Source of the DNA: an uncultured Gammaproteobacteria bacterium
GTDB taxonomy: Bacteria > Patescibacteriota > Patescibacteriia > VMEV01 > CAYQCH01
DNA length: 64,000 nt
Reading direction: 5' to 3'
NCBI GenBank assembly: GCA_964503955.1
Contig: CAZDCG010000002.1
Span: forward strand, 205,047 to 269,046
The position numbers were made by a program, and so were the translations under genes. This document shows, one piece after another, positions 14,458 through 58,219 of the stretch (positions within the stretch are counted from its first letter, which is position 1; each line of letters starts with the position of its first letter). The notes under the pieces are model-generated. The model did not search any database. It was not told the DNA's origin and saw only the letters and a list, made by a program, of their open reading frames with translations.

Positions 14458-14532
14458 GGCCCCATCGTCTAGCGGCTAGGACGCCAGGTTCTCATCCTGG
14501 AAACCGGGGTTCGATTCCCCGTGGGGTCACCA
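14458..14532 (+). tRNA. tRNA-Glu (anticodon CTC).
   Basis: Cloverleaf GGCCCCA/TGGGGTC acceptor, anticodon arm CCAGG-TTCTCAT-CCTGG, T-arm CGGGG-TTCGATT-CCCCG, CCA encoded. Confidence 0.85.
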
Positions 14533-14606
14533 AAAAGAAACTAGTTCGAGCACTCGAGAAGGGTCGGTGCCGAATCCAAAAAGGACTACGAAAGTAGTTT
14601 CTTTTT
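14532..14606. repeat. 12-13 bp inverted repeat (AAAAAGAAACTAG ... TAGTTTCTTTTT) immediately 3' of tRNA-Glu, enclosing a CTCGAG-centred palindrome. It could be the tRNA terminator or the island junction (att remnant).
   Basis: The arms are at 14532-14544 and 14595-14606. The loop contains ttcgagcactcgagaa. Confidence 0.5.
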
Positions 14607-14638
14607 GTTGTAGTAAAATACAACAAAGCTTGCTATAC
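14604..14638 (+). promoter_or_regulatory. C-box-like operator (TTGTTGTA-gtaaaa-TACAACAA) overlapping the promoter of the controller gene. An extended -10 (TGcTATACT) follows.
   Basis: A perfect 8-bp inverted repeat at 14604-14625, and TATACT at 14633-14638, sit 10 bp upstream of the C-protein ATG. This matches the known autoregulatory architecture of R-M controller proteins. Confidence 0.5.
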
Positions 14639-14647
14639 TGTTTTCAT

Positions 14648-14860
14648 ATGACTATGCAACAAGATGCCCAAAAATTAGGGGAAAATCTTAAAAGAATACG
14701 GTCAGAGAAAAACATCACACAGAGCAAGCTTGCGGAAATTTTAGATGTCGATCGATCTTTTGTTAGCAATATTGAAAATGGGAAAACTAACCCGACACTC
14801 TCAACTATTACTAAACTTGCAAAGGCGCTTGACGTGCAAATTGAGAAATTGATCAAATAA
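14648..14860 (+). CDS. XRE-family HTH protein, a candidate R-M controller (C) protein.
   Basis: 70 aa from the ATG at 14648 (MTMQQDAQKLGENLKRIRSEKNITQSKLAEILDVDRSFVSNIENGKTNPTLSTITKLAKAL). It ends 3 bp before the methyltransferase start. Confidence 0.7.
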   Translation: MTMQQDAQKLGENLKRIRSEKNITQSKLAEILDVDRSFVSNIENGKTNPTLSTITKLAKALDVQIEKLIK

Positions 14861-14863
14861 CAC

Positions 14864-15847
14864 ATGAAGAAGATTTTATATCAAACAAGTTTAGGAAAAT
14901 ACGTTTTGGGTGATTCCAAAGCTCTTATTGAGAAAGGTGAACTGGATCAATACAAAAATAAGATCCAGCTAGTTTTATTTTCTCCGCCATTTCCTTTGAA
15001 TGCCAAGAAGAAGTATGGGAATAAACTCGGAAAGGAATATAAAAAGTGGTTGTCTGATCTTGCACCTCTATTTGCGAAGTTATTGAAAAAGGACGGTTCT
15101 ATCGTTGTAGAGATGGGAAATGCATGGGAACCTAAGCGTCCAATACAGGCACTACTATCCCTTGAGTCATTGATGGCTTTCGTGAGTAATCCTAAAGCTG
15201 ACCTGCGTTTATGTCAGGAGTTCATTTGCTACAACCCCTCACGCCTCCCGTCGCCAGCTCAATGGGTTACAGTCAATCGGATACGCACGATCGATAGCTA
15301 CACACATGTATGGTGGATGGCAAAATCAGACTTTCCTAAGGCAGACAATCGTCGAGTTCTCAGACCGTACAGCAAGAGCATGCTCCAGCTTCTCAAGCGC
15401 AAGAGTTATAACTCCGGCAAGAGACCATCGCAACACAGCATCAGCGAGAAAGGTTTTCTTACGAATAACAAAGGGAGCATCATGCACAATGTCCTCGAGC
15501 TTGAACAGATGGACGAAGAGAGGGACTTGCGCCTCCCGACAAATATGTTTAGTTTTGCAAACACAAATTCCAATGATTTTTTCTCAACGCAATGCCGTAA
15601 GAAAAACATACCCATACACCCGGCACGAATGCCGACGTCACTTGCAAACTTTTTTATTGAATTTCTGACCGAACCCGGCGACATAGTCTTTGATCCATTT
15701 GCCGGGACAAATACCACCGGCTATTGTGCAGAAAAGTTAAAAAGAAAATGGCTGTCAGTGGAGATCGACAAAGATTATGGTAAGCAGTCGATCATCAGGT
15801 TCAAAGAACCAAAACTTACCAAGAAATTAACTATTAAGAAGATATGA
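14864..15847 (+). CDS. Type II DNA methyltransferase, beta class (N6-adenine or N4-cytosine).
   Basis: 327 aa. Motif IV SPPF (LVLFSPPFP) is near the N-terminus and motif I (FxGxG-like, IVFDPFAGTNTTG) near the C-terminus. This is the circularly permuted beta order, as in M.PvuII and M.RsrI. Confidence 0.8.
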   Translation: MKKILYQTSLGKYVLGDSKALIEKGELDQYKNKIQLVLFSPPFPLNAKKKYGNKLGKEYKKWLSDLAPLFAKLLKKDGSIVVEMGNAWEPKRPIQALLSLESLMAFVSNPKADLRLCQEFICYNPSRLPSPAQWVTVNRIRTIDSYTHVWWMAKSDFPKADNRRVLRPYSKSMLQLLKRKSYNSGKRPSQHSISEKGFLTNNKGSIMHNVLELEQMDEERDLRLPTNMFSFANTNSNDFFSTQCRKKNIPIHPARMPTSLANFFIEFLTEPGDIVFDPFAGTNTTGYCAEKLKRKWLSVEIDKDYGKQSIIRFKEPKLTKKLTIKKI

Positions 15848-17832
15848 GCACAAAATCAGTCATCAAGAATCTAGCTTCCGTTGACATCCTTACTGCGGCA
15901 AAAGACCCCGGTGCTCTTATTGGACGTCCTTTCTATTTGGACTACGAAAAAGCATGCGTCCTTGTACCGGACGCTTGGAAAATGAAAGTCGGTGGGATAC
16001 CGCAAGGTGCATTCCTACTTGCTTTTTATGAGAACGATGAGGGTATCTCTGAAGCTCTGCTTTTGCGAGCACTTGGACCCAAAGGTTTACCTACTGACAG
16101 CGACGTGACTAGTTCAATGATCGAATACTACAAAGACAATCTTAAAACAGCAGACGTTAAAGGTAGCCAGCTTGATGACTTTACTCGTTACCACTTCAGC
16201 TTCTCAGGATTGGAGTGTCGCATCCTTGGGACCTTCTACAAAGATAAGTCTGGGACTGTAGTTTTTGGTGCAGATCTCGAAAACTTCTATAGTGCTCATA
16301 ATTACACTGTCTACAAGCCGTCGGGCAAAGTTCTAGAACAAATTGTGAACTATAAGGACTTGAACGAAGTAGCAGGAGGTGTGAGTGATGTGAAGATCGG
16401 GAATGTTCGATACAGTTCAAGTTTACGTTTTCAGGACGATATCGAAAAGGTACCCGTTTACATCAGCCCTAAAGACTTTATCGGCAAGCGAACCGCTCTC
16501 TTCGGTATGACTCGTACAGGTAAGTCGAACACGGTAAAGAAAATCATTGAAGCAACGGTTGAAATCAGCCAAAAAGCAAAGAGGAAAAATGGCACAGATG
16601 CGAGCACCGAACCTTTTACGAAGTCTGGCTTGACCAAAGAATCAATAGGCCAAATCATCTTCGACATCAACGGAGAATATGCAAATGCAAACCTACAGGA
16701 CGATGGTACGGCGATCTTCGAGATGTATAAAGACGATGTTGTTCGTTACAGCTTACTAGAAAAGCCAGGATTCAAGGTCATGAAGACAAACTTTTTTGAC
16801 GACATTGATGCTGGCTTTGAGTTGCTGTGCTCGCTGTTAGCTATGGACGACGCACGTTTCGTTTCTAACTTTCGCTCCATCGAGCTGACCGTTCCACAAG
16901 AACTGGAAGACGATCCGAGCTTTAAGGTAAGGCATGCGCGACGAGTTGCGGCGTACAAGTGTTGTTTGCACCAAGCTGGCTTTAAGCATAAGGACACAAC
17001 TATCAAATTCTCCGGAGAAGCGACTCTCAATGCTTTAGCAAGTGGAATTGACCCATCAAAGGGAATCTCATACGATCAAGCTGTGAACTGGTTCACAGCA
17101 GTGTGGGAGGCCACCGGAGAGAATGACTTTTTCGAGAATTATAAAAAGAAACATGAGGGTCGAGAATGGGCCGATGAAGACCTTAAAGCCCTGCTCGTGA
17201 TGCTCACACGCAAGCGTAGTCCCGGCTCTGGTAAAGGCGCAGACTGTAGCGGATTTAGGGTGTTTAAGCCTGCACTGAATTTGCATACAGAAAGTGTCGA
17301 CAAGCCCTACGCAATTGAAATTCTAGAGACCTTGAGGCAAGGTAAAATTGTGATCGCTGATCTATCGCAGGGTAATCCAGAAATAATTCAGCTCTACTCG
17401 GAGAAAATCTGCCAGAGAATATTTGCTGATGCGATGAATAATTTCATTGCAGCAAAAAGCAATAATTTTATTCAGATGTACTTCGAAGAAGCTCACAATC
17501 TTTTCCCAAAGCAGACAGATAAAGATCTCAGTAAAATATATAACCGCTTGGCAAAAGAGGGGGCAAAACTTCATCTCGGTATCGTCTACGCTACACAAGA
17601 AGTTAGTTCTATCAGCTCCAACATCCTCAAAAACACCCAGAATTGGTTTATTGCTCACCTTAACAACGAGGATGAGTTAAAGGAACTCAAAAAGTATTAC
17701 GACTTTACTGACTTCACTACCGGGCTTACCCGATTCAGCCCCAACACAGACAAGGGTTTTGTTCGTATGAAAACATACTCTAATCCGTTTGTAGTACCTG
17801 TTCAGATCGACCGATTTACAGCGAAGAAATAG
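15844..17832 (+). CDS. HerA/FtsK-superfamily ATPase (DUF87-like) with an N-terminal HAS-barrel-like region and a large insertion.
   Basis: 662 aa, with an ATGA overlap onto the methyltransferase stop. Walker A is ALFGMTRTGKSNTVKKII. The HerA-type IFDINGEY motif follows. Walker B is FIQMYFEEAHNLFP. The HerA C-terminal signature is LGIVYATQEVSSISSNILKNTQNWFIAHLNNEDE (compare TQRPs...lsQcnT...RL.N..D). Confidence 0.65.
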   Translation: MSTKSVIKNLASVDILTAAKDPGALIGRPFYLDYEKACVLVPDAWKMKVGGIPQGAFLLAFYENDEGISEALLLRALGPKGLPTDSDVTSSMIEYYKDNLKTADVKGSQLDDFTRYHFSFSGLECRILGTFYKDKSGTVVFGADLENFYSAHNYTVYKPSGKVLEQIVNYKDLNEVAGGVSDVKIGNVRYSSSLRFQDDIEKVPVYISPKDFIGKRTALFGMTRTGKSNTVKKIIEATVEISQKAKRKNGTDASTEPFTKSGLTKESIGQIIFDINGEYANANLQDDGTAIFEMYKDDVVRYSLLEKPGFKVMKTNFFDDIDAGFELLCSLLAMDDARFVSNFRSIELTVPQELEDDPSFKVRHARRVAAYKCCLHQAGFKHKDTTIKFSGEATLNALASGIDPSKGISYDQAVNWFTAVWEATGENDFFENYKKKHEGREWADEDLKALLVMLTRKRSPGSGKGADCSGFRVFKPALNLHTESVDKPYAIEILETLRQGKIVIADLSQGNPEIIQLYSEKICQRIFADAMNNFIAAKSNNFIQMYFEEAHNLFPKQTDKDLSKIYNRLAKEGAKLHLGIVYATQEVSSISSNILKNTQNWFIAHLNNEDELKELKKYYDFTDFTTGLTRFSPNTDKGFVRMKTYSNPFVVPVQIDRFTAKK

Positions 17833-17837
17833 CCGCT

Positions 17838-19187
17838 ATGTCTTACTCAAGCCGAGACGGTCGACGACCAAATGAATACGCCAGCAAATCCTCACACGGG
17901 TACATTATTCGTGATCCGGAAGTTTCGGAGTTTTTGGATAAATGCAATCTGCCAAAAACGGCGGAAGAGGTTGACGTGCCGACTAACCTCCAATTCGATC
18001 TGGGGGCACCAGAAAACCCAATAAAACATATTATTGCTATTGATGGTGGTCGATCCGAAGTGTTCGTAAGGAAAGATTTTCCATCGTCCACACTCACGTT
18101 CTTTCAATTTGGCGCACTATTTTTCAAGACGGAAGACCTTGAAGCAATATCAAAAAAGGCGTTCATCGATCCGGAGGACATGGCAAAGCTCAACACTATC
18201 GAAAGGTACAAATTGGCTTTGCCAACAAAAAACATTCTCTTGAAGGATGCGGCCTCTTTCAAAGAATCATTCCGAAAGTCACTGTTTGATTTCTTTATGA
18301 AAGGGTTGAGTGGCGAGACTTTCGCAGAGACACTGCGCTGGCTCATCTTTCAGGAATTTGATACTCCAATTGATGGGTACAATCTTTCTACCTGCCCTAA
18401 TTGTGGCGCAAGTGATATTCTTCTAGGTACAAAAATAAAAAAGACTAACTTTTCGTACCAGTGTCCACACTGCAAGGGGGAGATATTTATTACTGATATT
18501 TTCCGCCTGCATGAGGCTATCGATGACGAGCTTGGTGCCGGTGGAGTCTTGGGGTACGTGAATGTACTGATCGAGCAGATCATTATCGTCTATTTGATTA
18601 AAGCAATATTAGAGACCAAACCTTCGATTCTGAGCGAAACACTTTTTATAAAAGACGGACCACTTGCATTCTTTGGTCAGACAGCAAACATGCAAAAGCC
18701 ATTGAGGAAATTGACCACCTTTCTTTCTGAAAAGCACAATCTTTTTCTTGCTGGTTTAGAGAAAAGCGGACCTTTCGTAGAGCATGCAGATGAAATCGGA
18801 AGAAAATTAATGCCAGGGACTGTCTTGCTTTTGGACAACGCTTATATCTATAAATACATTTTGCCCGGTAAGGTTGATAACACAGCCCCATACGCCCGAA
18901 GTTCTTACTACTCCGGAAAAATGATTTTTAAGTCAACAGACGGGAAAATATATGTAGTAACTATGCCTACCAAGAACGCCGAAGTCGTTTTAGCTCCCAA
19001 GAAAAGTGACTTTCATAATTTGGACGTCATCCTCGCTAACATCCAGAAATTACGTTGTGATATGTACGACAATTCGCTTTTCCCAGTAGCTCTTGCGAAC
19101 AAGCTTGTATCTCTCGCAAATCATCCAAGCTCAGCGATTCTTGAAAAATTTGCAAAGAAAACAATTACATCAAAAACGACTCTTTAG
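17838..19187 (+). CDS. Putative nuclease partner of the HerA-like ATPase. It may be NurA-like (RNase H-like fold) with an inserted zinc ribbon.
   Basis: 449 aa, 5 bp after the HerA-like gene. IIAIDGGRSEV resembles NurA motif I and FIKDGPLAFFG resembles the later D-G-x-L motif. A CPNCG...CPHCKG zinc ribbon is present. The family assignment is tentative. Confidence 0.4.
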   Translation: MSYSSRDGRRPNEYASKSSHGYIIRDPEVSEFLDKCNLPKTAEEVDVPTNLQFDLGAPENPIKHIIAIDGGRSEVFVRKDFPSSTLTFFQFGALFFKTEDLEAISKKAFIDPEDMAKLNTIERYKLALPTKNILLKDAASFKESFRKSLFDFFMKGLSGETFAETLRWLIFQEFDTPIDGYNLSTCPNCGASDILLGTKIKKTNFSYQCPHCKGEIFITDIFRLHEAIDDELGAGGVLGYVNVLIEQIIIVYLIKAILETKPSILSETLFIKDGPLAFFGQTANMQKPLRKLTTFLSEKHNLFLAGLEKSGPFVEHADEIGRKLMPGTVLLLDNAYIYKYILPGKVDNTAPYARSSYYSGKMIFKSTDGKIYVVTMPTKNAEVVLAPKKSDFHNLDVILANIQKLRCDMYDNSLFPVALANKLVSLANHPSSAILEKFAKKTITSKTTL

Positions 19188-19232
19188 TCGTGCTCTGGGA
19201 GCTTTCATTTAGGCTTTTTGTTTCGTAATAAT

Positions 19233-19278
19233 TTTTGACTGAGTTATGTATAGATAACCACAAATTACTGAGTCAAAA
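19233..19278. repeat. Imperfect 12-bp inverted repeat (TTTTGACTGAGT ... ACTGAGTCAAAA) in the convergent gap between the nuclease gene and the recombinase 3' end. It is either a bidirectional terminator or a recombinase site.
   Basis: One mismatch between arms and a 22-bp spacer. It overlaps the recombinase stop codon. Confidence 0.35.
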
Positions 19279-20599
19279 CCTTCCCATTCTTCAAAACTAA
19301 CTCACTACTCACGCACTCCAATACCGATCTTTGCTCTAAAACACTTCCGTCTCGCAGCACAAACTTGGCGTAGTCTTTGAGATCTATCGGTTCAATCTTT
19401 TCGGTCTTTTTCTTGCCCAAGAACATCGCTTGGAGCTTTTTAAACTTTTGAATCTCGCTGTCTAGTTTGGCGGTCAATTTCACCCTATCAAGGCTGATGG
19501 TGTCGACCATCTTTAACAATGCTTCAACTAGTTCTGTTTCGTTGAGAGCTGAATTTTTGCAATGCCTATCTTTGGATTTGGTACATCTGTAGTAGACATG
19601 GCGATTCACTCCTCCTGCTTTTATCTTCTTAAACTTCTCATCCGCTGTAATGCCAGATCCACATTCACCACACGTCATAAGACGTGTAAATGCAAATTCT
19701 TTCCCCTGTGATTTAATCACCTGTGATTTTATTGATTTGCGTGTTTCATCGAACAATTCTTTGGTTATTATTGGCTTGTGTTTCCCGTCATACCAAGCTC
19801 CACTTCCTTGAGGGAATTCAAACCGACCGTAATAAAACGTATTATCAATAATCTTAAAAACATTACCTAGGCTCAAATGAAAACCTCGATGTGTTTTAAA
19901 ATCAAGCTCGTATTTAAGCCATTTATGAACTCGTGAGACACTCCATTTTTCATAAGCGATTTTTTCAAATATCTGTCGTATTATCTCCGCTCGTTCAGGA
20001 TCCAGTTCAACTTCACATTTGGCGGTTCTATCATTCACTTTTCTGTAGCCTGTTGGTGGCTGAGCCGGCCATAACCCCATTTCACAGCGTGTTCTCATAC
20101 CTCGTTTAACATTGATACTCTTGTTATCATTTTCAAGCTTTGCTTGGCTACAAAGAATCATCAGCAAGAATTTATCACTTGGCGAATTGGTGAATGTCTG
20201 GCCAAATGTTTTTATCTGAATCAATTTTTTTTGATCCATTCGATCGACCAGTTTCCCCAGATCGCCAGCGTTTCGGCTTAAACGATCTGGAGCCCAGGTG
20301 ATAACTCCATCAAAAATTCCTGAATCAATATCTTTTACCAGTTCTTCAAAAACAGGTCTTGTCCCAGATTCTTTAGCCGAGTGGGATTCTCTACGAATTT
20401 CAGACACCAAAAGATTTTCTCGTTCCGCAATTTGCGTCATCTCCTTGATTTGAGAATCAATGGATAATGCCTGCTTTTCATCGCCCTCGGTGGATTTACG
20501 AGCGTATAAACAATATTTTAGGTTGGGTTGAGCTTCTGTCATGTATTTATTAATGACAGATACCAATACATCTGCTAAGTCTATGCAGAATAGCCCCAT
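19265..20599 (-). mobile_element. Large serine recombinase (phage/ICE-type integrase).
   Basis: The N-terminal resolvase catalytic domain has YARKSTEGDEKQALSIDSQ (serine nucleophile region) and DRLSRN. The C-terminal recombinase domain has the zinc ribbon CGECGSG...YYRC. The likely true start is at 20542 (MTEAQPNLKYCLYARKS). Confidence 0.8.
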
Positions 20600-20605
20600 T
20601 ATTGC

Positions 20606-21001
20606 CTAATCGTCCCGGTGTTTACGTGGGCGTTTCTTGGTTTTTTCTTCTGAAAAATTAACAAATTCTATTCTATTCACTTTCATATTTGTATTTAGGG
20701 TCTCAAAGAAGTTCTTTGGTCTCGGTTTAACGTATTTCTTCTTATTATTATTCAACCAATATTCGATCGCTCGCATACTTCCTGTTTTAATGTTGTTTAT
20801 CAGCTTGCTCTCAGCCAAGTCGCTTACTGATTCTGCCCCCATATCCAATGCTTCGTCCATTTGTTTCTTAAACTCTGGATCTTCTTTGCGCCAACGATAA
20901 ACAGAGTTTCTGGCTATGCCAACTTTTTCACACGCAGCCGAAACAATTGGGACCAGCTTCAGTTCTTCGATAAATTTTTTAGCTAATCGCGGCTTTTTCA
21001 T
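20606..21001 (-). CDS. Small HTH protein resembling a terminase small subunit or an excisionase-like regulator, co-transcribed with the serine recombinase.
   Basis: 131 aa. VGIARNSVYRWRKEDPEFKK is a typical HTH_23/TerS-like motif. Its stop lies 6 bp before the recombinase start. Confidence 0.45.
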   Translation of the reverse strand: MKKPRLAKKFIEELKLVPIVSAACEKVGIARNSVYRWRKEDPEFKKQMDEALDMGAESVSDLAESKLINNIKTGSMRAIEYWLNNNKKKYVKPRPKNFFETLNTNMKVNRIEFVNFSEEKTKKRPRKHRDD

Positions 21002-22264
21002 CTCCTTTTATGATAGTGGCTTTGCCCCCAGTTAAACGCTCCCAACGTCTGATGATCAAGTCACAGAAAACTGGTTCCAGCTCTATTCCATATACTCGTC
21101 GCTTAAGCTGCTCGCAAGCAATAAGGGTGCTTCCTGAGCCGGAAAAGCTGTCCAAGATTATTTCTCCCGGCTTGGTACAGCGTAATATCGCTTTTTGATG
21201 AAGCTGTGGGGGCTTGGAGGTCGCATGCTCGTAGTCTTGGCCTGCAAGCCTCTTTACACTCCAAATGTCGCTGATTTCTTCCAGCATGGCATTCCCTGTA
21301 GATATATCTTTGTTCAGCACCTCCGTTAAATTAGTCATGTTTTTAGCAATAGAGGGTTTGCCTCTTGTGCCATAAACGCATGGTTCATAACATTTATTGA
21401 AGGCTACGCCAGGGGTAGGATTATGGCCATTTTTAATCCACAAACAAACGCGCTTATTATCAATGCCTAGTTCTTGATAGAGAGTTTGTATCAACCAAAT
21501 ATATTTTTGATCGCACCAGTAGAAGATATGCGCATTCTGCTTACTGACCAAAAGTGCTGTTTCCATGCTTTTTTTAATAAGTTTACGGTAATCAGCCTCA
21601 CTTCTGTTATCTTGAACTGATCCGCCATAGCTTTTTTTACCACCAATGCCAGCGTTGTAATCGATTTGTATGTTATAGACAGGGTCGCTGTATATCATTG
21701 AAGCCGATTTCTCCTCGAATAATTTCTTCACCACAGTAGGATCAGTTGAATCACCGCATATCAGTCTGTGTTCACCCATGATAACCAGATCACCAAGTTG
21801 AGTTAGCGGCTCCTTTATCTTTTTCAACTCCTTTTCGATCTCAAAATCATCGTCGTTAACCTCGGAGTTCTCATTCCAATGGCTTGCCAGCTCCACAGGC
21901 TCGAAACCAACATCAACTAAGGTTTCCATCTCAAAAAGCTTTAGAAGCTCATAATCCCAAGTCCCGTCATTATGGTTGCTCTCTAGCGAAATCTTGTCTT
22001 TTTCCTCTGCGGTAAGAGCTCGATCAGGGACAAGAACTGTAACCTCTGTATCCCTAAATCTTTGAGAGCTTTTTTACGTTGATTTCCAGAAAGAATTACT
22101 CCTTCCGTATCAACTTTCAAAACGTCATGAAACCCTCGCTCACTAATTCTTTCCTTCAATTTGAGAAAAGAAGCTTTACTTATCTTTCTCGGATTGTTTT
22201 TCCAGAGTTTTAGGTCAGAAACCTTGCGTTTCTCTGGACGCCATACGATTGTCGGCTTAGACAT
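20979..22264 (-). pseudogene. ParB-like nuclease domain fused to a DNA methyltransferase (phage-type). It is split by a single frameshift near 22048-22052.
   Basis: The upstream ORF (21983-22264) encodes a ParB-N domain, ...ILSGNQRKKALKDLGI. A -1/+2 frame then continues TEVTVLVPDRALTAEEKDKISLESNHNDGTWDYELL into the methyltransferase ORF (20979-21929). That ORF carries motif IV IYSDPVYN and motif I LDSFSGSGST. An A6 homopolymer lies 20 nt upstream of the shift. Confidence 0.6.
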
Positions 22265-22461
22265 ATTTTTATGTACTTAATTGTTAATAAAAAAATACCC
22301 GCGAATGGTCCAGTTGACTGGACACACTCACGGGTATTTCCCTGCGAGGAGTATTGATTTGTGAGGTAAGTATATATGCACCCGTTGGGAGTGTAAAGGC
22401 CTTGTGCTAGCTCATACATTTGCTTGCTTTTTTGTATAAAATGATTTATACTCTTTATACT

Positions 22462-23082
22462 ATGATAAAAGATCTCAAAGAAAAAGATAAACGGGCGTTT
22501 GCCCTTATCCGCAATAAGCTCATCCATGGCGATCAAAGCCCCACATTACGGGAAATTAATGAGGTTACAGGCGGTAAATCTCCCCGTTCAGCAAGCCTTG
22601 TTGTCAATCGTCTAATAGATGCCGGTCTCATAAAAAAGGTCGGGAGAGATTTTGTTTTAACGGCACCACCTAAGGGAAATTCTATTAGCACCGTTGATGT
22701 TCCTCTCGTAGGAGCTGTTTCATGCGGAATGCCGGTGCTAGCAGAAGAGAACATTCAGGACTATATTCCTGTCTCCACAGCTATGGCGAAAAGTGGTAGC
22801 AAATATTTTCTGCTTCGCGCGATTGGTGATTCAATGAATGATGCTGGAATTAATCCTGGCGACCTTCTCCTTGTTCGACAACAGCCAACCGCTAACGACG
22901 GTGAAAAAGTAGTCGCTCTTATCAACGATGAAGCTACCGTGAAAGTCTTTGAGAAAGCAAAAGACGCCGTAATATTGAAACCAAAATCAAAAAACAAAGA
23001 ACATAAACCTATAATATTAACTGATGATTGCATGATCCAAGGTGTTGTTACTGCGGTACTTCCCGGGGATTTATGTGAGTAA
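22462..23082 (+). CDS. LexA-like repressor (wHTH plus S24 peptidase).
   Basis: 206 aa from the ATG at 22462. The S24 catalytic motifs are AIGDSMNDAGINPGDLLLV and a downstream Lys (KVFEK). The N-terminal domain is LexA-like. Confidence 0.7.
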   Translation: MIKDLKEKDKRAFALIRNKLIHGDQSPTLREINEVTGGKSPRSASLVVNRLIDAGLIKKVGRDFVLTAPPKGNSISTVDVPLVGAVSCGMPVLAEENIQDYIPVSTAMAKSGSKYFLLRAIGDSMNDAGINPGDLLLVRQQPTANDGEKVVALINDEATVKVFEKAKDAVILKPKSKNKEHKPIILTDDCMIQGVVTAVLPGDLCE

Positions 23083-23086
23083 ATAT

Positions 23087-23326
23087 ATGCCAAAGAAAAA
23101 TATACACACTGTGTACAACACAAGTAGAAAAATGTGGGAAACAAAAAAAGAAGGACAAAAGAAGTCCCTGGCAAGCTCTCGAACAAAGGCAACAGCTATG
23201 CAAAAGTCTGTTCGTGAAGCCAAAAAAGCTCAGGCTGAGCATGTCATTCATAATAAAGACGGTAAGATAAGAGATCAGGACAGTTACGGAAAAGACCCAA
23301 ACCCACCAAAAGATAAGAAGCACTAA
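23087..23326 (+). CDS. DUF2188-family small protein.
   Basis: 80 aa. MPKKNIHTVY...HVIHNKDGKIRDQDSYGKDPNPPKD matches the conserved DUF2188 pattern (xVVPxxGGWxV ... VHxxDGRIRxxxSYGxDPxPP). Confidence 0.5.
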   Translation: MPKKNIHTVYNTSRKMWETKKEGQKKSLASSRTKATAMQKSVREAKKAQAEHVIHNKDGKIRDQDSYGKDPNPPKDKKH

Positions 23327-23327
23327 T

Positions 23328-24218
23328 ATGACCTGGGAAGATACTTTTAAATCTTGGGGGGCTGCTCCAAGTACAACGGAGCAACAAAAGATGGAAAATG
23401 CGGAGACGGCCATAAGAAAAGCCATTGAAGCAAATTCTCAATTGTCGTGCATGGATATATCATTCATACCTCAAGGTTCTTATAAATCAAAAACGAATGT
23501 AAGGAACGATAGTGATGTTGATATTTGTGTTTGTTTAAATTCGACTTTTTTTCCCAGATATCCTATTGGTAAGACAAAGGAACATTACGGGAATATAGGT
23601 GGAACTATTACTTTTTCAGCTTTCAAGAACTTGGTTCAAAGAGCGCTCGAAGATTATTTTGGCAAGGAAAGTGTCGATCGCGGTAATAAAGCTTTTGATA
23701 TCCACTCAAACACGTACAGAGTCGATGCCGATGTCGTTCCTGCTTTTGCGTATAGGTATTATTACGATACAGGTTTCAAATGGCACGATCCTGAGGGTAT
23801 TTGCTTCTTAGCTGATGACGGCACAAAGATTATAAACTGGCCACACCAAGTCTACGAAAACTGCAAAAACAAACACACTGTAACAGGACAAAGATATCGC
23901 AAAGTAACAAGAATTTTAAAAAGACTAAGAAACAGGATGCAAGAGGAAGATATTATTGAAGCAAGAGATATTCCCTCATTTTTGATCCAAAGCATGGTGT
24001 GGGGAGCACCTGATGATCATTTCAATAGGGACACCTACTCTGCGGATGTTCGCGCTGTGCTTGCGCATTGTCATAACGAGACATTGCCAAACGGAAATCA
24101 CGCTGATCTGCGAGAAGTCAACAATATTAAACTAATTTACGGAACTCACCAGCCCTGTACAAGAGAAAGGGCTCACGCTTTTTTTGCTAAGTCATGGGAC
24201 TATATTGGATTTAAATAA
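23328..24218 (+). CDS. SMODS-domain nucleotidyltransferase (cGAS/DncV-like, CD-NTase-type), the CBASS-like cyclase.
   Basis: 296 aa. It has the GS...DxD motif (QGSYKSKTNVRNDSDVDICVCL) and a third acidic residue in YRVDADVVPAF. The N-terminal pattern is typical of SMODS. Confidence 0.6.
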   Translation: MTWEDTFKSWGAAPSTTEQQKMENAETAIRKAIEANSQLSCMDISFIPQGSYKSKTNVRNDSDVDICVCLNSTFFPRYPIGKTKEHYGNIGGTITFSAFKNLVQRALEDYFGKESVDRGNKAFDIHSNTYRVDADVVPAFAYRYYYDTGFKWHDPEGICFLADDGTKIINWPHQVYENCKNKHTVTGQRYRKVTRILKRLRNRMQEEDIIEARDIPSFLIQSMVWGAPDDHFNRDTYSADVRAVLAHCHNETLPNGNHADLREVNNIKLIYGTHQPCTRERAHAFFAKSWDYIGFK

Positions 24219-24222
24219 ACAC

Positions 24223-24846
24223 ATGGATAAGGTAAATGCCACGGTTAGGGTATATGTTCAAATTCTCGCTTTTCTTGTCATTTGGAGCATTACCATTCTC
24301 GTTACTAAAACGTATTCTGTTTTTGATTTTTGGACGGCAGTTAAATTAATCCCACAAGCAATTTCAGCCTACGCACTCTTAGGAATTATCTTTGTAAAAT
24401 GGCTCTGGCGTTTGAAGTTTTTACAAGGTTGGTTGATAAAAATACCAGATCTTCAAGGAACCTGGCGAGGCGAACTTAAAAGTGACTGGATAAACCCTGA
24501 AACTGGTAAGGGTATTGATCCAATACCTGTGCTTTTAGTTATCCGACAAACCTTTTCGAGTATTCAATGCACCATGATGACACGAGAATCCTCAAGTTAC
24601 AGTACCACCGCAAATATCAACGCCGCTCCTAATAGCGAAGACCTCTATTTAACATATAATTATACTAATAGACCTAAAGCGACGATCAGAGATAGAAGTG
24701 CAATTCATGATGGGGCCTCTATACTAAAGATTATCTCAAAACCAAATAGATTTCTTGAAGGAGAATATTGGACAAGTCGTAAAACCCGCGGGGAGATAGC
24801 ACTTGTTTTTGATTCAAAGGATCTTAAGGAAAAAATTGAGTTTTGA
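24223..24846 (+). CDS. Two-TM membrane effector with a beta-rich C-terminal domain (S-2TMbeta-like), the CBASS-like effector.
   Basis: 208 aa, starting 5 bp after the SMODS gene. Two TM helices (VRVYVQILAFLVIWSITILV and AISAYALLGIIFVKWLW) are followed by a beta-strand-rich region. Confidence 0.5.
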   Translation: MDKVNATVRVYVQILAFLVIWSITILVTKTYSVFDFWTAVKLIPQAISAYALLGIIFVKWLWRLKFLQGWLIKIPDLQGTWRGELKSDWINPETGKGIDPIPVLLVIRQTFSSIQCTMMTRESSSYSTTANINAAPNSEDLYLTYNYTNRPKATIRDRSAIHDGASILKIISKPNRFLEGEYWTSRKTRGEIALVFDSKDLKEKIEF

Positions 24847-25145
24847 AGCACTTAAAAAAGCAAAAGTGACGACAGCCCGTTACTTTTCATCTCTAATCCG
24901 TGTCACTTTTGTCACTATTTATGAGAGAGGATGATAAGTTGAACATGAAAAACTGGACTTATGAAGAGAGAGAAAATCTAATTGGATTCTTTGAATTATT
25001 GCTTGAAGTAGATAGACGAAATAACCCACATCTTTTCACTAAAAATAGCTCTCTCGAGAAGGGTCGAGTAGATAAACAAGGATAGAAGCCCAAAGGCCTT
25101 ACTGGGCAAGGAAATATTTTGGTCGCATCTCGAAAAGGCTCACCA

Positions 25146-25172
25146 CAAAAACCGCTCAAAGAGCGGTTTTTG
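25146..25172 (+). terminator. Rho-independent terminator.
   Basis: AAACCGCTC-aaa-GAGCGGTTT followed by TTTG. Confidence 0.6.
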
Positions 25173-25186
25173 TAATCTAGCGTCTA

Positions 25187-56760: not shown

Positions 56761-57558
56761 ATGGCCAGAAGGAAACGATCGTTCTTTTTCATCATACCGT
56801 TGCTGGCGGCCGGATGTTCCGGGCTGCCTGAAGAGAGAGAACTTCCGCATCTGGACGCGGCCAATGAGACGATCATGGTTTACAGCGACCATGTCAGAGG
56901 GCGCATCGCGGAGCGGATGCTTGAACACCAGCGCCAGTCCCAGAATCTTGCCGATTTGATTGCCTTCTACGGAGACATCAAGGCCAACGGGCCCGGCTGG
57001 TTCGAGGAAGACAATGCCGAGACCAAGGCCTTTACCAGGGTTCTCTCGGTCATGACGCATATCCAGAGCTTGCAAGTTGCCAATGGCAATGACTTGTTCT
57101 CGGTTGCATGCGTGCAGGCTGAGGAGGCGATCCGGCTCAGGCAGCTGGCGGAGAAGTGCGGCGCGCAGGTCCCGCAGCGTACCAATTATCTGCTGCTTGC
57201 TCAGCAGTATGAGGAATTTTCCAAGCAGAACATCGCGCTTGGCGAATCCTTTTTCAAGAAGGCCCGCACGACGGGGAATGAGTACCACACCTTCCTGGTG
57301 CAGAACGGAAGGTTGCCGGACATCAACGTGGACGACACGCAGATCGTGATCAAGGAGCCGGTGGCTGTTCCGGTGCCTGTGATCCCGTTGCCCGTTCCGC
57401 CTCAGCCGCAAGAGCCCCCGGCTGCACCGGCACCGGATATCCAGCCTGAGCCCACACCAGCACCCGATCAGCAGCCGCCTGCCGCGCCTGAGGATCCTCC
57501 GGTTCGTCTGGGGCAACCGCTTTCCGGTCAACCCGCTCCAGCCGTTCCCCCCAAGTAG
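56761..57558 (+). CDS. Lipoprotein with a proline-rich C-terminus, in a compositionally GC-rich segment.
   Basis: The lipobox signal is FFFIIPLLAAGCSG. The C-terminal PVPVIPLPVPPQPQEPPAAPAP tract is present. Confidence 0.5.
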   Translation: MARRKRSFFFIIPLLAAGCSGLPEERELPHLDAANETIMVYSDHVRGRIAERMLEHQRQSQNLADLIAFYGDIKANGPGWFEEDNAETKAFTRVLSVMTHIQSLQVANGNDLFSVACVQAEEAIRLRQLAEKCGAQVPQRTNYLLLAQQYEEFSKQNIALGESFFKKARTTGNEYHTFLVQNGRLPDINVDDTQIVIKEPVAVPVPVIPLPVPPQPQEPPAAPAPDIQPEPTPAPDQQPPAAPEDPPVRLGQPLSGQPAPAVPPK

Positions 57559-57568
57559 GCTTGCCTGT

Positions 57569-58219
57569 ATGCAAAAAAAAGAGCAATATAGGCCCACGAG
57601 AGAAAGGTGGGTATCTGCACTCATGAAGCTCTTTTTGGCAAGCTTTGCTGGTTTAGCTCTGCTTGCGGGATCAGGGTGCGCGTCTTCCTCCTTGAGAGAA
57701 CCGCCTGCGCAGGCGGCCAAGACGCATACCGGCTTGAACCGACCGCTTCAGCCGCCGCCTCTTGCGGGGGATCTGGGCGAAGCCGGCGAGGATTACCGAA
57801 AACAGGTCAGGCACCGCATGTCGCAGCGGACAACCGAGATCCGTCAGCTGCAGATAAAAGCGGAACTGGCTCAGTCCCGTATTCACAGGGCTGTTCTGTC
57901 TGGAGCTGTGGAAGGCGTGGAAGAGGACCTCGTCCAGTTTATCCGACTGCGCGACGAAATCCTTCTGCTGCGAAGAGCCGCTGAGCAGGAATTCCTCCTG
58001 CTTTCGGCATTTCTCAGCGACGCGTCTGTTCTCCTGAGCAGGCAGAAGGAACAAGGCCCGATCGCTCTTGCGTATCGGGATCTCTCGCGGGAATACCGTG
58101 CAGAGGCGCTGCAAACACGCCAGCTTGTTGAAAGCGCCGAGCGGCAGCGAGAAGAAGCTGTCGACTTGCAGGACCGCGTGCTCAATGCGGCCCGGCAAGA
58201 AAGGAGCCCTACGGATTAA
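57569..58219 (+). CDS. Lipoprotein with a coiled-coil region.
   Basis: Lipobox LLAGSGCASS. The likely start is at 57623 (MKLFLASFAG...). Confidence 0.45.
   Translation: MQKKEQYRPTRERWVSALMKLFLASFAGLALLAGSGCASSSLREPPAQAAKTHTGLNRPLQPPPLAGDLGEAGEDYRKQVRHRMSQRTTEIRQLQIKAELAQSRIHRAVLSGAVEGVEEDLVQFIRLRDEILLLRRAAEQEFLLLSAFLSDASVLLSRQKEQGPIALAYRDLSREYRAEALQTRQLVESAERQREEAVDLQDRVLNAARQERSPTD

Follow-up and report, generated by a model that had tools for sequence, protein, structure and literature searches.

A very probable type I CBASS of CdnE and Cap15 in a repressor-led four-gene unit on a small element

Several bacteria carry a two-gene cyclic-oligonucleotide-based antiphage signalling system (CBASS) in which a clade E CD-NTase (CdnE) is paired with Cap15, the present name of the S-2TMbeta effector family (PMC12657218). 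The enzymes of Legionella pneumophila, Enterococcus faecalis and Cecembia lonarensis (LpCdnE, EfCdnE and ClCdnE), all encoded with Cap15, produce cUU/cUC; their dipyrimidine specificity lies in an Asn of lid 1, which recognises uracil in the acceptor pocket, in a Glu-Arg/Gln pair that narrows the donor pocket, and in the donor-side Trp of the (R/Q)xW motif of lid 3 (PMC10442399). Cap15 senses uracil-containing cyclic dinucleotides, oligomerises and disrupts the inner membrane (PMC10419184), and the CdnE03-Cap15 operon of Staphylococcus schleiferi (Ssc) protects staphylococci via membrane disruption, the trigger of CdnE03 being a phage RNA, cabRNA (PMC10686824). Here, I describe a pair of this ordinary, already known kind, which PADLOC-type tools would call automatically. 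It lies in a 64,000-nucleotide stretch of contig CAZDCG010000002.1 (the window, from whose first letter positions are counted) and very probably constitutes a type I CBASS of CdnE and Cap15, set in a repressor-led four-gene unit on a small element. As one more CdnE-Cap15 pair among the thousands catalogued it changes little; the points that go beyond an earlier reading of this DNA (the original prediction) are two upstream genes in the unit, a mobile-element scaffold and an altered specificity residue. The genes of the unit, separated by gaps of 4, 1 and 4 nucleotides (nt), are:

22462 to 23082, plus strand: putative LexA/CI-type self-cleaving repressor of 206 amino acids (aa), with a winged-helix N-domain and an S24 peptidase (Pfam, NCBIfam, PHROG)
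23087 to 23326, plus strand: DUF2188 protein of 79 aa (Pfam PF09954, PADLOC PDC-S16)
23328 to 24218, plus strand: predicted CdnE, a clade E CD-NTase of 296 aa (PADLOC, PDB sequence matches, motif table)
24223 to 24846, plus strand: predicted Cap15 effector of 207 aa, with two transmembrane helices and a C-terminal beta-barrel (Pfam, PADLOC, AlphaFold2, Foldseek)

The CBASS cyclase model PDLC00801 of PADLOC aligns end to end with the 296-aa enzyme (E=8.3e-115). A PDB sequence search returned only five matches, all of them bacterial CdnE proteins (LpCdnE, EfCdnE, ClCdnE, EmCdnE and RmCdnE), the best being LpCdnE 7x4f, a 'cyclic dipyrimidine nucleotide synthase', over the full length (E=1.8e-70); EfCdnE 7x4c gave E=3.8e-53 and ClCdnE 7x4a E=3.7e-43. 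On this best-hit basis, that is, all five matches being CdnE, the enzyme is assigned to clade E of the CD-NTases, and PF26305 in the precomputed annotation of its relatives is CD_NTase_C. The catalytic set consists of G50-S51, D63-V64-D65 eleven residues on, and D133-A-D135, which conforms to the pattern GS ... [DE]x[DE] ... [DE]; G50-S51, D63-V64-D65 and D133/D135 do not vary across 14 aligned sequences (relatives at 56-83% identity). The original prediction had taken a GS-x(n)-DxD motif with a third Asp for the mark of a CD-NTase, and the invariance of the motifs, the PADLOC score and the PDB matches all agree with it.

The effector gene opens with an ATG at 24223, on the same strand and four nucleotides past the cyclase TAA. 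The close tandem had been described correctly, with a gap of 5 bp where 4 nt are measured; likewise, the two transmembrane helices and the beta-rich domain stand, while the length is 207 aa, the 208 formerly given having counted the stop codon. Hydrophobic segments span approximately residues 8-28 (Kyte-Doolittle maximum 2.26, peak at residue 19) and 42-62 (maximum 1.82, peak at residue 49). Pfam PF18153 (Cap15_CD_rec) scores 78.8 bits, well over its cut-off of 31.2 (E=5.6e-22, model positions 2-120 of 122) and the PADLOC two-transmembrane effector model PDLC00702 matches the full length (E=2.6e-77). AlphaFold2, given 36 homologues, yields a model with a predicted local distance difference test score of 84.3, helices at residues 6-27 and 33-59 and eight strands at residues 79-198. 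The three best Foldseek matches of this model in the PDB are Yersinia aleksiciae Cap15 entries 7N34/7N35; with 7N34 it gave E=1.4e-5, a TM-score of 0.85, a root-mean-square deviation of 2.3 A and 21-22% identity in the barrel, and the sequence-only PDB match to the same protein is marginal (E=0.004). The protein is thus best regarded, from family models and predicted fold, as a Cap15 with two N-terminal transmembrane helices and a Cap15-fold barrel; both the S-2TMbeta identity put forward originally and the structure prediction proposed as its check came out in this sense.

The pairing itself is conserved: among relatives of the enzyme at 39-83% identity, a Cap15 homologue directly follows the cyclase in about 75 of 80 loci, which belong to Patescibacteria, Verrucomicrobia, Acidobacteria, Proteobacteria, Nitrospirae and the archaeon Methanococcoides. 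Together with the PADLOC scores, this adjacency goes well past anything chance would give. Looking up the exact window CdnE in a contig index gave no hit, and the genomic context was read from homologues. In the 80 loci examined the two-transmembrane protein was found only adjoining the cyclase, so the concern that it might be a housekeeping membrane protein is not borne out. Pfam and PADLOC scans of the window neighbours revealed none of Cap2/Cap3, HORMA/TRIP13 or type IV accessory genes; the families found there are only the S24 repressor, DUF2188, DUF4256, a methylase, an integrase and a protein like the small terminase subunit (TerS). Since Cap2/Cap3 and HORMA genes are lacking, the system is classed as type I, as had been anticipated.

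With the Legionella, Enterococcus and Cecembia systems the locus shares the two-gene type I architecture, the catalytic GS/DxD/D residues, the lid-1 Asn and the Glu-Gln pair, and it differs from them in lid 3, Cys277 replacing Trp, and in lid 2, which is Val instead of the Asn/His of the cyclic-dipyrimidine CdnE (PMC10442399). In particular, Asn170 of lid 1 aligns with N173 of LpCdnE and is Asn in 87 of 87 sequences; the Glu263-Gln275 pair is retained, and lid 3 reads Q275-P-C277, so that the (R/Q)xW signature of cyclic-dipyrimidine CdnE retains its Gln but not its Trp. The lid-3 Trp is present in 67 of 87 family members; among the fetched loci the position is Cys in 12 of the 12 sequences at least 75% identical, window enzyme included, and Phe or Tyr occurs in a few database homologues at 70-83% identity. 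The W281A mutant of EfCdnE binds purines and yields cUA/cUG (Yang, Ko and colleagues, PMC10442399). The predicted product is therefore uncertain past 'uracil-containing cyclic dinucleotide', the gating Trp being replaced by Cys: the second base could be a pyrimidine or a purine. The Cys-subclade CdnE of the candidate phyla radiation (CPR) may make a nucleotide signal other than cUU, and this natural Trp-to-Cys variant at the purine/pyrimidine gate offers a ready test of how CD-NTase signals diversify.

Two further systems bear comparison. Cap15 of Yersinia aleksiciae, the founding structure and the protein on which PF18153 was built, has the same two transmembrane helices and barrel receptor, yet just 21-22% barrel identity to the window protein. 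The type I-B CBASS of S. schleiferi likewise pairs a clade E cyclase with Cap15 in two genes and stands beside a restriction-modification system; it disrupts the membrane without lysis upon activation by phage cabRNA, but its enzyme makes cGAMP, belongs to another E subcluster and lacks the LexA/DUF2188 leader (PMC10686824). Only these two effectors, YaCap15 and Ssc-Cap15, are known to oligomerise on ligand binding and disrupt membranes.

By analogy with these characterised homologues, phage infection would switch CdnE on, and the active enzyme would cyclise two nucleoside triphosphates into a uracil-containing cyclic dinucleotide, Asn170 reading uracil in the acceptor pocket and a donor pocket without its gating Trp (Cys277) admitting a pyrimidine or a purine as second base. 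The cyclic dinucleotide would bind the cytoplasmic beta-barrel of Cap15, which, once ligand-bound, would oligomerise through its two transmembrane helices and disrupt the membrane, killing or arresting the cell ahead of phage progeny (abortive infection). Activation, signalling and membrane breakage are all, in this scheme, borrowed from the homologues.

Upstream of the pair, the first gene of the unit matches Peptidase_S24 of Pfam (E=1.6e-28), TIGR00498 (lexA) of NCBIfam (135.5 bits against a cut-off of 110.95, model positions 2-198 of 203) and CI-like/UmuD-like PHROG families. In a full-length alignment with E. coli LexA, C88-G89, S124 and K162 fall on A84-G85, S119 and K156; the protein thus appears to be a LexA/CI-type S24 autopeptidase with a cleavage site and a Ser/Lys dyad. 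The second gene matches PF09954 at 44.9 bits (cut-off 22, E=1.3e-11) and PADLOC PDC-S16 (E=1.4e-22), and DUF2188 homologues of its subfamily, at 65-86% identity, are always 79 aa long. The public record starts it at an internal Met (64 aa); the longer start is taken as right because all 79 aa, with the N-terminal strand KKNIHTVYN, are conserved in over 100 homologues. The signals bordering the unit are:

22424 to 22452, plus strand: candidate promoter TTGCTT-17-TATACT (sequence reading, conserved architecture)
22434 to 22451, plus strand: candidate operator, the inverted repeat GTATA-N8-TATAC over the -10 hexamer (uniqueness, conservation)
24862 to 24887, plus strand: weak hairpin then UUUU past Cap15, a possible end of the transcription unit (z = -2.5 for a 79-nt stretch)
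25145 to 25173, no strand assigned: perfect 13-bp hairpin with flanking A/T runs at the right edge of the island, a strong bidirectional terminator-like site (dG -21 kcal/mol, z = -6.3)

The promoter architecture is common to four related loci among those fetched for comparison (numbered with the prefix L), namely L002, L006, L020 and L090, whose repressors are 61-75% identical. The repressor ATG lies 9 nt past the -10 hexamer, and the mRNA of the four-gene unit would therefore be leaderless or nearly so. GTATA-N8-TATAC has no second match in the 64-kb window, even allowing one mismatch, and has a counterpart at the corresponding place in L002, L006 and L020; in L090, TATAC half-sites of a related kind are present. 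These observations would fit an autoregulated promoter from which the four genes are all transcribed. Abortive infection has a familiar counterpart in lambda cI-rexA-rexB, a module co-transcribed with the repressor from a maintenance promoter of the leaderless type, to which the window unit bears a likeness. Most likely, the repressor gene and the defence cargo would be co-transcribed during the integrated state, as with cI-rexAB, and self-cleavage of the repressor, upon DNA damage or a RecA-type signal, would further de-repress the four-gene unit.

Between Cap15 and the strong terminator-like site lies a 61-aa open reading frame (ORF) at 24900-25085 on the plus strand, for which no family match was found and which has one weak relative (43% identity, after Cap15 in L020). 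In three close relatives Cap15 is directly followed by an ORF of 229-248 aa (L001 7483-8229, L002 7483-8226, L096 6772-7461); these ORFs are 81-94% identical to each other, have no family match and are absent from the window, and could represent an optional third cassette gene or the next scaffold gene.

A number of points weigh against a working type I CBASS under a single regulated promoter. To begin with, Pfam SMODS (PF18144), which had been suggested as a check on the cyclase, matches at 21.3 bits, under its cut-off of 26.5; it and NTP_transf_2, also sub-threshold, are the only Pfam matches of the enzyme, which falls far under the cut-offs of the NCBIfam CBASS-cyclase equivalogs as well (the sub-threshold score for 'DS2_2 anti-phage nucleotidyltransferase', 162 bits against 350, was not used). 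The enzyme is taken as a CD-NTase despite this because the more specific models are decisive. The same scores might suggest that the locus is not a CBASS at all, but a generic pol-beta-type or antibiotic nucleotidyltransferase beside an unrelated membrane protein, an outcome that the original prediction had considered. This is vanishingly improbable and may be regarded as refuted by the full-length CdnE structure matches (1.8e-70), to which no other kind of PDB protein adds itself, by the end-to-end PADLOC cyclase model (8.3e-115), by the identity of Cap15, with Cap15_CD_rec well over its cut-off and a fold matching 7N34, and by the pairing conserved in about 75 of 80 loci.

Second, the Trp-to-Cys change makes the closest characterised enzymes imperfect guides to the product, and the S-2TMbeta family includes an effector working in the opposite sense, OptE of the Panoptes system OptS-OptE (PMC12657218). 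Panoptes resembles the window in its S-2TMbeta effector and in its two-gene cyclase-plus-effector operon, and differs in having an mCpol cyclase, not a CD-NTase, and in its inverse signalling (PMC12657218). A Panoptes-like mode in the window, with a constitutive dinucleotide holding Cap15 inactive until a phage sponge or nuclease removes it and frees Cap15 to kill, would fit the kinship of OptE and the changed chemistry that loss of the gating Trp reveals in the Cys subclade, and nothing in the sequence separates the two modes. It is nevertheless highly improbable: known inverse systems rely on mCpol or another minimal cyclase in place of a CD-NTase (PMC12657218), the characterised CdnE-Cap15 pairs all signal positively (PMC10419184, PMC10686824), and the window proteins match the CBASS models end to end. 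Third, on the side of the promoter, 0.27 matches to GTATA-N8-TATAC would be expected by chance in one window, and 24 of 100 shuffles contain one or more; the backing for the operator is conservation in just three or four related loci, and that for co-transcription from one promoter is spacing and conservation. Finally, regulation may be no longer intact, since the element in the window is a reduced copy (see below).

With the type I CBASS still the preferred account of the pair, the leader that precedes it can be set beside known CBASS regulators. In CapH/CapP (bioRxiv 10.1101/2022.04.27.489752) and CapW (PMC9122588), too, a DNA-damage repressor inactivated by proteolysis adjoins a CBASS, and DUF2188 genes also occur in CapH/CapP-associated operons (bioRxiv 10.1101/2022.04.27.489752). 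The window regulator is, however, a one-protein LexA/CI-type S24 autopeptidase, whereas CapH/CapP combines a helix-turn-helix protein with a metallopeptidase and CapW is a WYL protein; it heads the operon and is transcribed in the same direction, whereas the CapH/CapP and CapW regulators are divergent. Within the paper library searched, no description of an S24 protein regulating CBASS turned up. Moreover, unlike CapH/CapP and CapW, the leader is not specific to CBASS, being found also before Thoeris-like, Shedu, HEPN and unmatched cargo.

Two sets of loci show where the leader occurs. Among relatives of the pair, the repressor gene precedes CdnE in L001-L006, L009, L014, L015, L020 and L043 (Nitrospiraceae), in most cases with DUF2188 in between. 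The contexts of DUF2188 were compared for seven proteins of the conserved subfamily and 29 metagenomic loci: of the 24 metagenomic loci that were informative, about 21 have the S24 repressor directly upstream of DUF2188, and the common layout is S24 repressor, DUF2188, then a variable gene set. Besides CdnE-Cap15, the slot was seen to hold four or more further CBASS cyclase families, one of which is accompanied by a SAVED-HNH effector; Thoeris-like sets (two TIR proteins, TIR with ThsA_Macro, or a TIR-like protein with 8xMP); Shedu SduA, a HEPN protein, the PADLOC candidate PDC-M48B and a Multi_ubiq/ThiF/BubE set; and several gene sets without any family match. In Streptococcus Javan prophages, genes for homologues of DUF2188 belong to the lysogeny module and share the orientation of the CI repressor and integrase. 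The idea of the LexA-like gene as a regulator dedicated to CBASS was accordingly downgraded, the same leader preceding unrelated cargo.

The whole looks like a small integrative element, derived from a satellite or prophage, with a maintenance operon carrying interchangeable defence cargo. A broader proposal, to which I would give an even chance, is that repressor and DUF2188 form the leader of a defence slot in an undescribed family of satellite-like elements of about 6-8 kb, that this slot explains the defence association of DUF2188, and that the Cys-type CdnE may signal differently. The proposed family would carry a large serine integrase, the large terminase subunit (TerL), TerS, a ParB-methylase and a 130-aa protein, and would be common in Patescibacteria and present in other phyla too; CdnE-Cap15 would be one of at least ten interchangeable cargos, the others including five or more CBASS cyclase families. 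DUF2188 would mark the slot, probably as a regulator rather than an effector. Its occurrence beside CBASS and in CapH/CapP-linked operons had been noted without explanation in the earlier literature (Lau et al.), and, in the account given by Lau et al., Burroughs and Aravind (2020) were the first to link it to defence. The context now provides a concrete, testable role for this long-unexplained association, and the slot after DUF2188, if true, a guilt-by-position route to new defence systems.

Among the unmatched cargo, sets of 302, 439, 144 and 280 aa in L090 (5243-8789, the same as L119 6243-9786) and of 380 and 362 aa in L108 (4347-6601) are matched by neither Pfam nor PADLOC, and the 439-aa protein has relatives among the cargo of L102, L108, L115, L116 and L127. 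Such unmatched slot genes are candidate new defence genes. In L084/L085, from a Nitrosomonas metagenome-assembled genome (MAG), a second SMODS-domain gene, of unrelated type, and the 254-aa ORF behind it (87-1707) lie 3 kb from a DUF2188, TIR-like and 8xMP cassette, among insertion sequence elements and a resolvase, an arrangement suggesting a defence island that combines several nucleotide-signalling systems.

The scaffold in the window, all on the minus strand, consists of:

19265 to 20599, minus strand: large serine recombinase, the integrase (Pfam Resolvase, Recombinase and Zn_ribbon_recom; PHROG 95, E=2.7e-66)
20606 to 21001, minus strand: helix-turn-helix protein resembling the small terminase subunit (PHROG 4044, E=2e-10; Pfam HTH_Tnp_1_2)
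20979 to 22264, minus strand: ParB-N plus N6/N4 DNA methylase, split (Pfam N6_N4_Mtase, E=8e-31)
22286 to 22345, minus strand: long hairpin then U7, upstream of the ParB-methylase (dG -36.1 kcal/mol, z = -10.4)

The serine integrase is conserved along with the cassette in CPR loci, and the TerS-like protein matches Pfam Sf6_terminase under the cut-off. In related elements the divergent scaffold holds the 130-aa protein, the ParB-methylase, the TerS-like protein, TerL (PHROG 38, E about 1e-78) and the serine integrase; family scans and comparison with these loci found neither TerL nor the 130-aa gene in the window element. Its ParB-methylase is split into ORFs of 316 and 93 aa about 50 nt apart, by pseudogene formation or assembly error, and is a single ORF of 424-430 aa in L001, L088, L090, L093 and L096. 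The window element is a reduced copy: of the integrase, master repressor and packaging genes that, without capsid or tail genes, would characterise a phage satellite, it has an integrase, a CI-like repressor and a TerS-like protein, and TerL occurs only in the fuller relatives. The hairpin at 22286-22345 lies downstream of a promoter-like TTTACA-17-TATACT (22397 to 22369), and L001, L002, L005, L009, L012, L088, L090, L093 and L096 have hairpins of some 19-30 bp at the equivalent position, a number of them sharing stem sequence and differing in the apical part. The window hairpin may serve as a terminator or antitermination barrier ahead of the methylase, terminase and integrase genes. Rfam matched only tRNAs in island and window, and the hairpin had no match.

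With so much missing, the CBASS genes might be part of a decaying remnant, in which the element is degraded and they are no longer expressed or functional; the split methylase, the loss of TerL and of the 130-aa gene, and the failure to find att repeats for the inner element would all be expected. All four genes of the unit are nonetheless intact and full length, every family-invariant residue is kept, and promoter and operator are conserved, which leaves decay improbable.

Alternatively, the pair may serve the element and not its host, as an addiction module killing cells that lose the element or as an interference module sabotaging a helper or competitor phage. In the closest relatives the cassette is always cargo of the scaffold of integrase, TerS, sometimes TerL, and ParB-methylase, and an 80%-identical copy occurs on an IMG/VR viral contig (L081), between endolysin-like genes and an integrase; no clear structural module was found within 10 kb of that cassette. 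Defence hotspots in satellites and prophages are reportedly established (Rousset 2022, Fillol-Salom 2022). On the other hand, more distantly related CdnE-Cap15 pairs are found that lack the scaffold, and the window element, having no TerL, looks immobile. I consider this account unlikely, although it does not truly exclude an antiphage CBASS, the molecular mechanism being identical.

For the element as a defence carrier, P4-like satellites and phage-inducible chromosomal islands (PICIs) provide a likeness, in that they offer a fixed slot for interchangeable defence systems in a small integrative element. Lambda, P4 and PICIs differ from the window scaffold, with its large serine integrase, TerS, sometimes TerL, and ParB-methylase, and the hosts of the window-type element, unlike theirs, are mostly uncultured Patescibacteria. 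For the window, the closest relatives of the island genes suggest a Patescibacteria host, the housekeeping proteins compared being singleton clusters. CBASS would thus travel as exchangeable cargo on a miniature element in a (probably) ultra-small bacterium with little room for accessory genes; a CPR host is no surprise, since CPR defence systems have already been surveyed and found at high density (PMC12259885).

The element lies in an island of low G+C, 0.38-0.45 at about 14-25 kb against 0.46-0.53 in the flanks, which begins at tRNA-Glu 14458-14532. An exact 14-bp direct repeat, CTCGAGAAGGGTCG, brackets 10.5 kb of this low-G+C island at 14553-14566 and 25053-25066, one copy 20 nt after tRNA-Glu and the other about 200 nt after Cap15, inside the 61-aa ORF. 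By my estimate, chance alone would produce about 0.2 such 14-bp repeats in 11 kb, and the repeat is only possibly an att remnant, not typical of serine integrases, or else due to chance. Comparison of the integrase-proximal junction (19170-19290) with the region past Cap15 revealed no shared core.

The island also houses an operon resembling a restriction-modification system (14567-19187, plus strand), which encodes a C-protein-type helix-turn-helix protein, a type II N6/N4 methylase (PADLOC PDLC03323, E=2.7e-75), a HerA-like ATPase of 662 aa and a 449-aa protein with a Zn-ribbon, whose database cluster-mates are named NurA domain-containing; it had been placed in the same island as the CBASS pair, and both indeed lie inside the low-G+C stretch. 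The HerA/NurA-like proteins are at least 90% identical to relatives in MAGs of Parcubacteria, Microgenomates and Doudnabacteria, a pattern suggestive of recent gene transfer among CPR lineages. Elsewhere in the window, G+C rises locally to 0.593 at positions 57001-58000, where Rfam gave no match, from about 0.48 in the surroundings.

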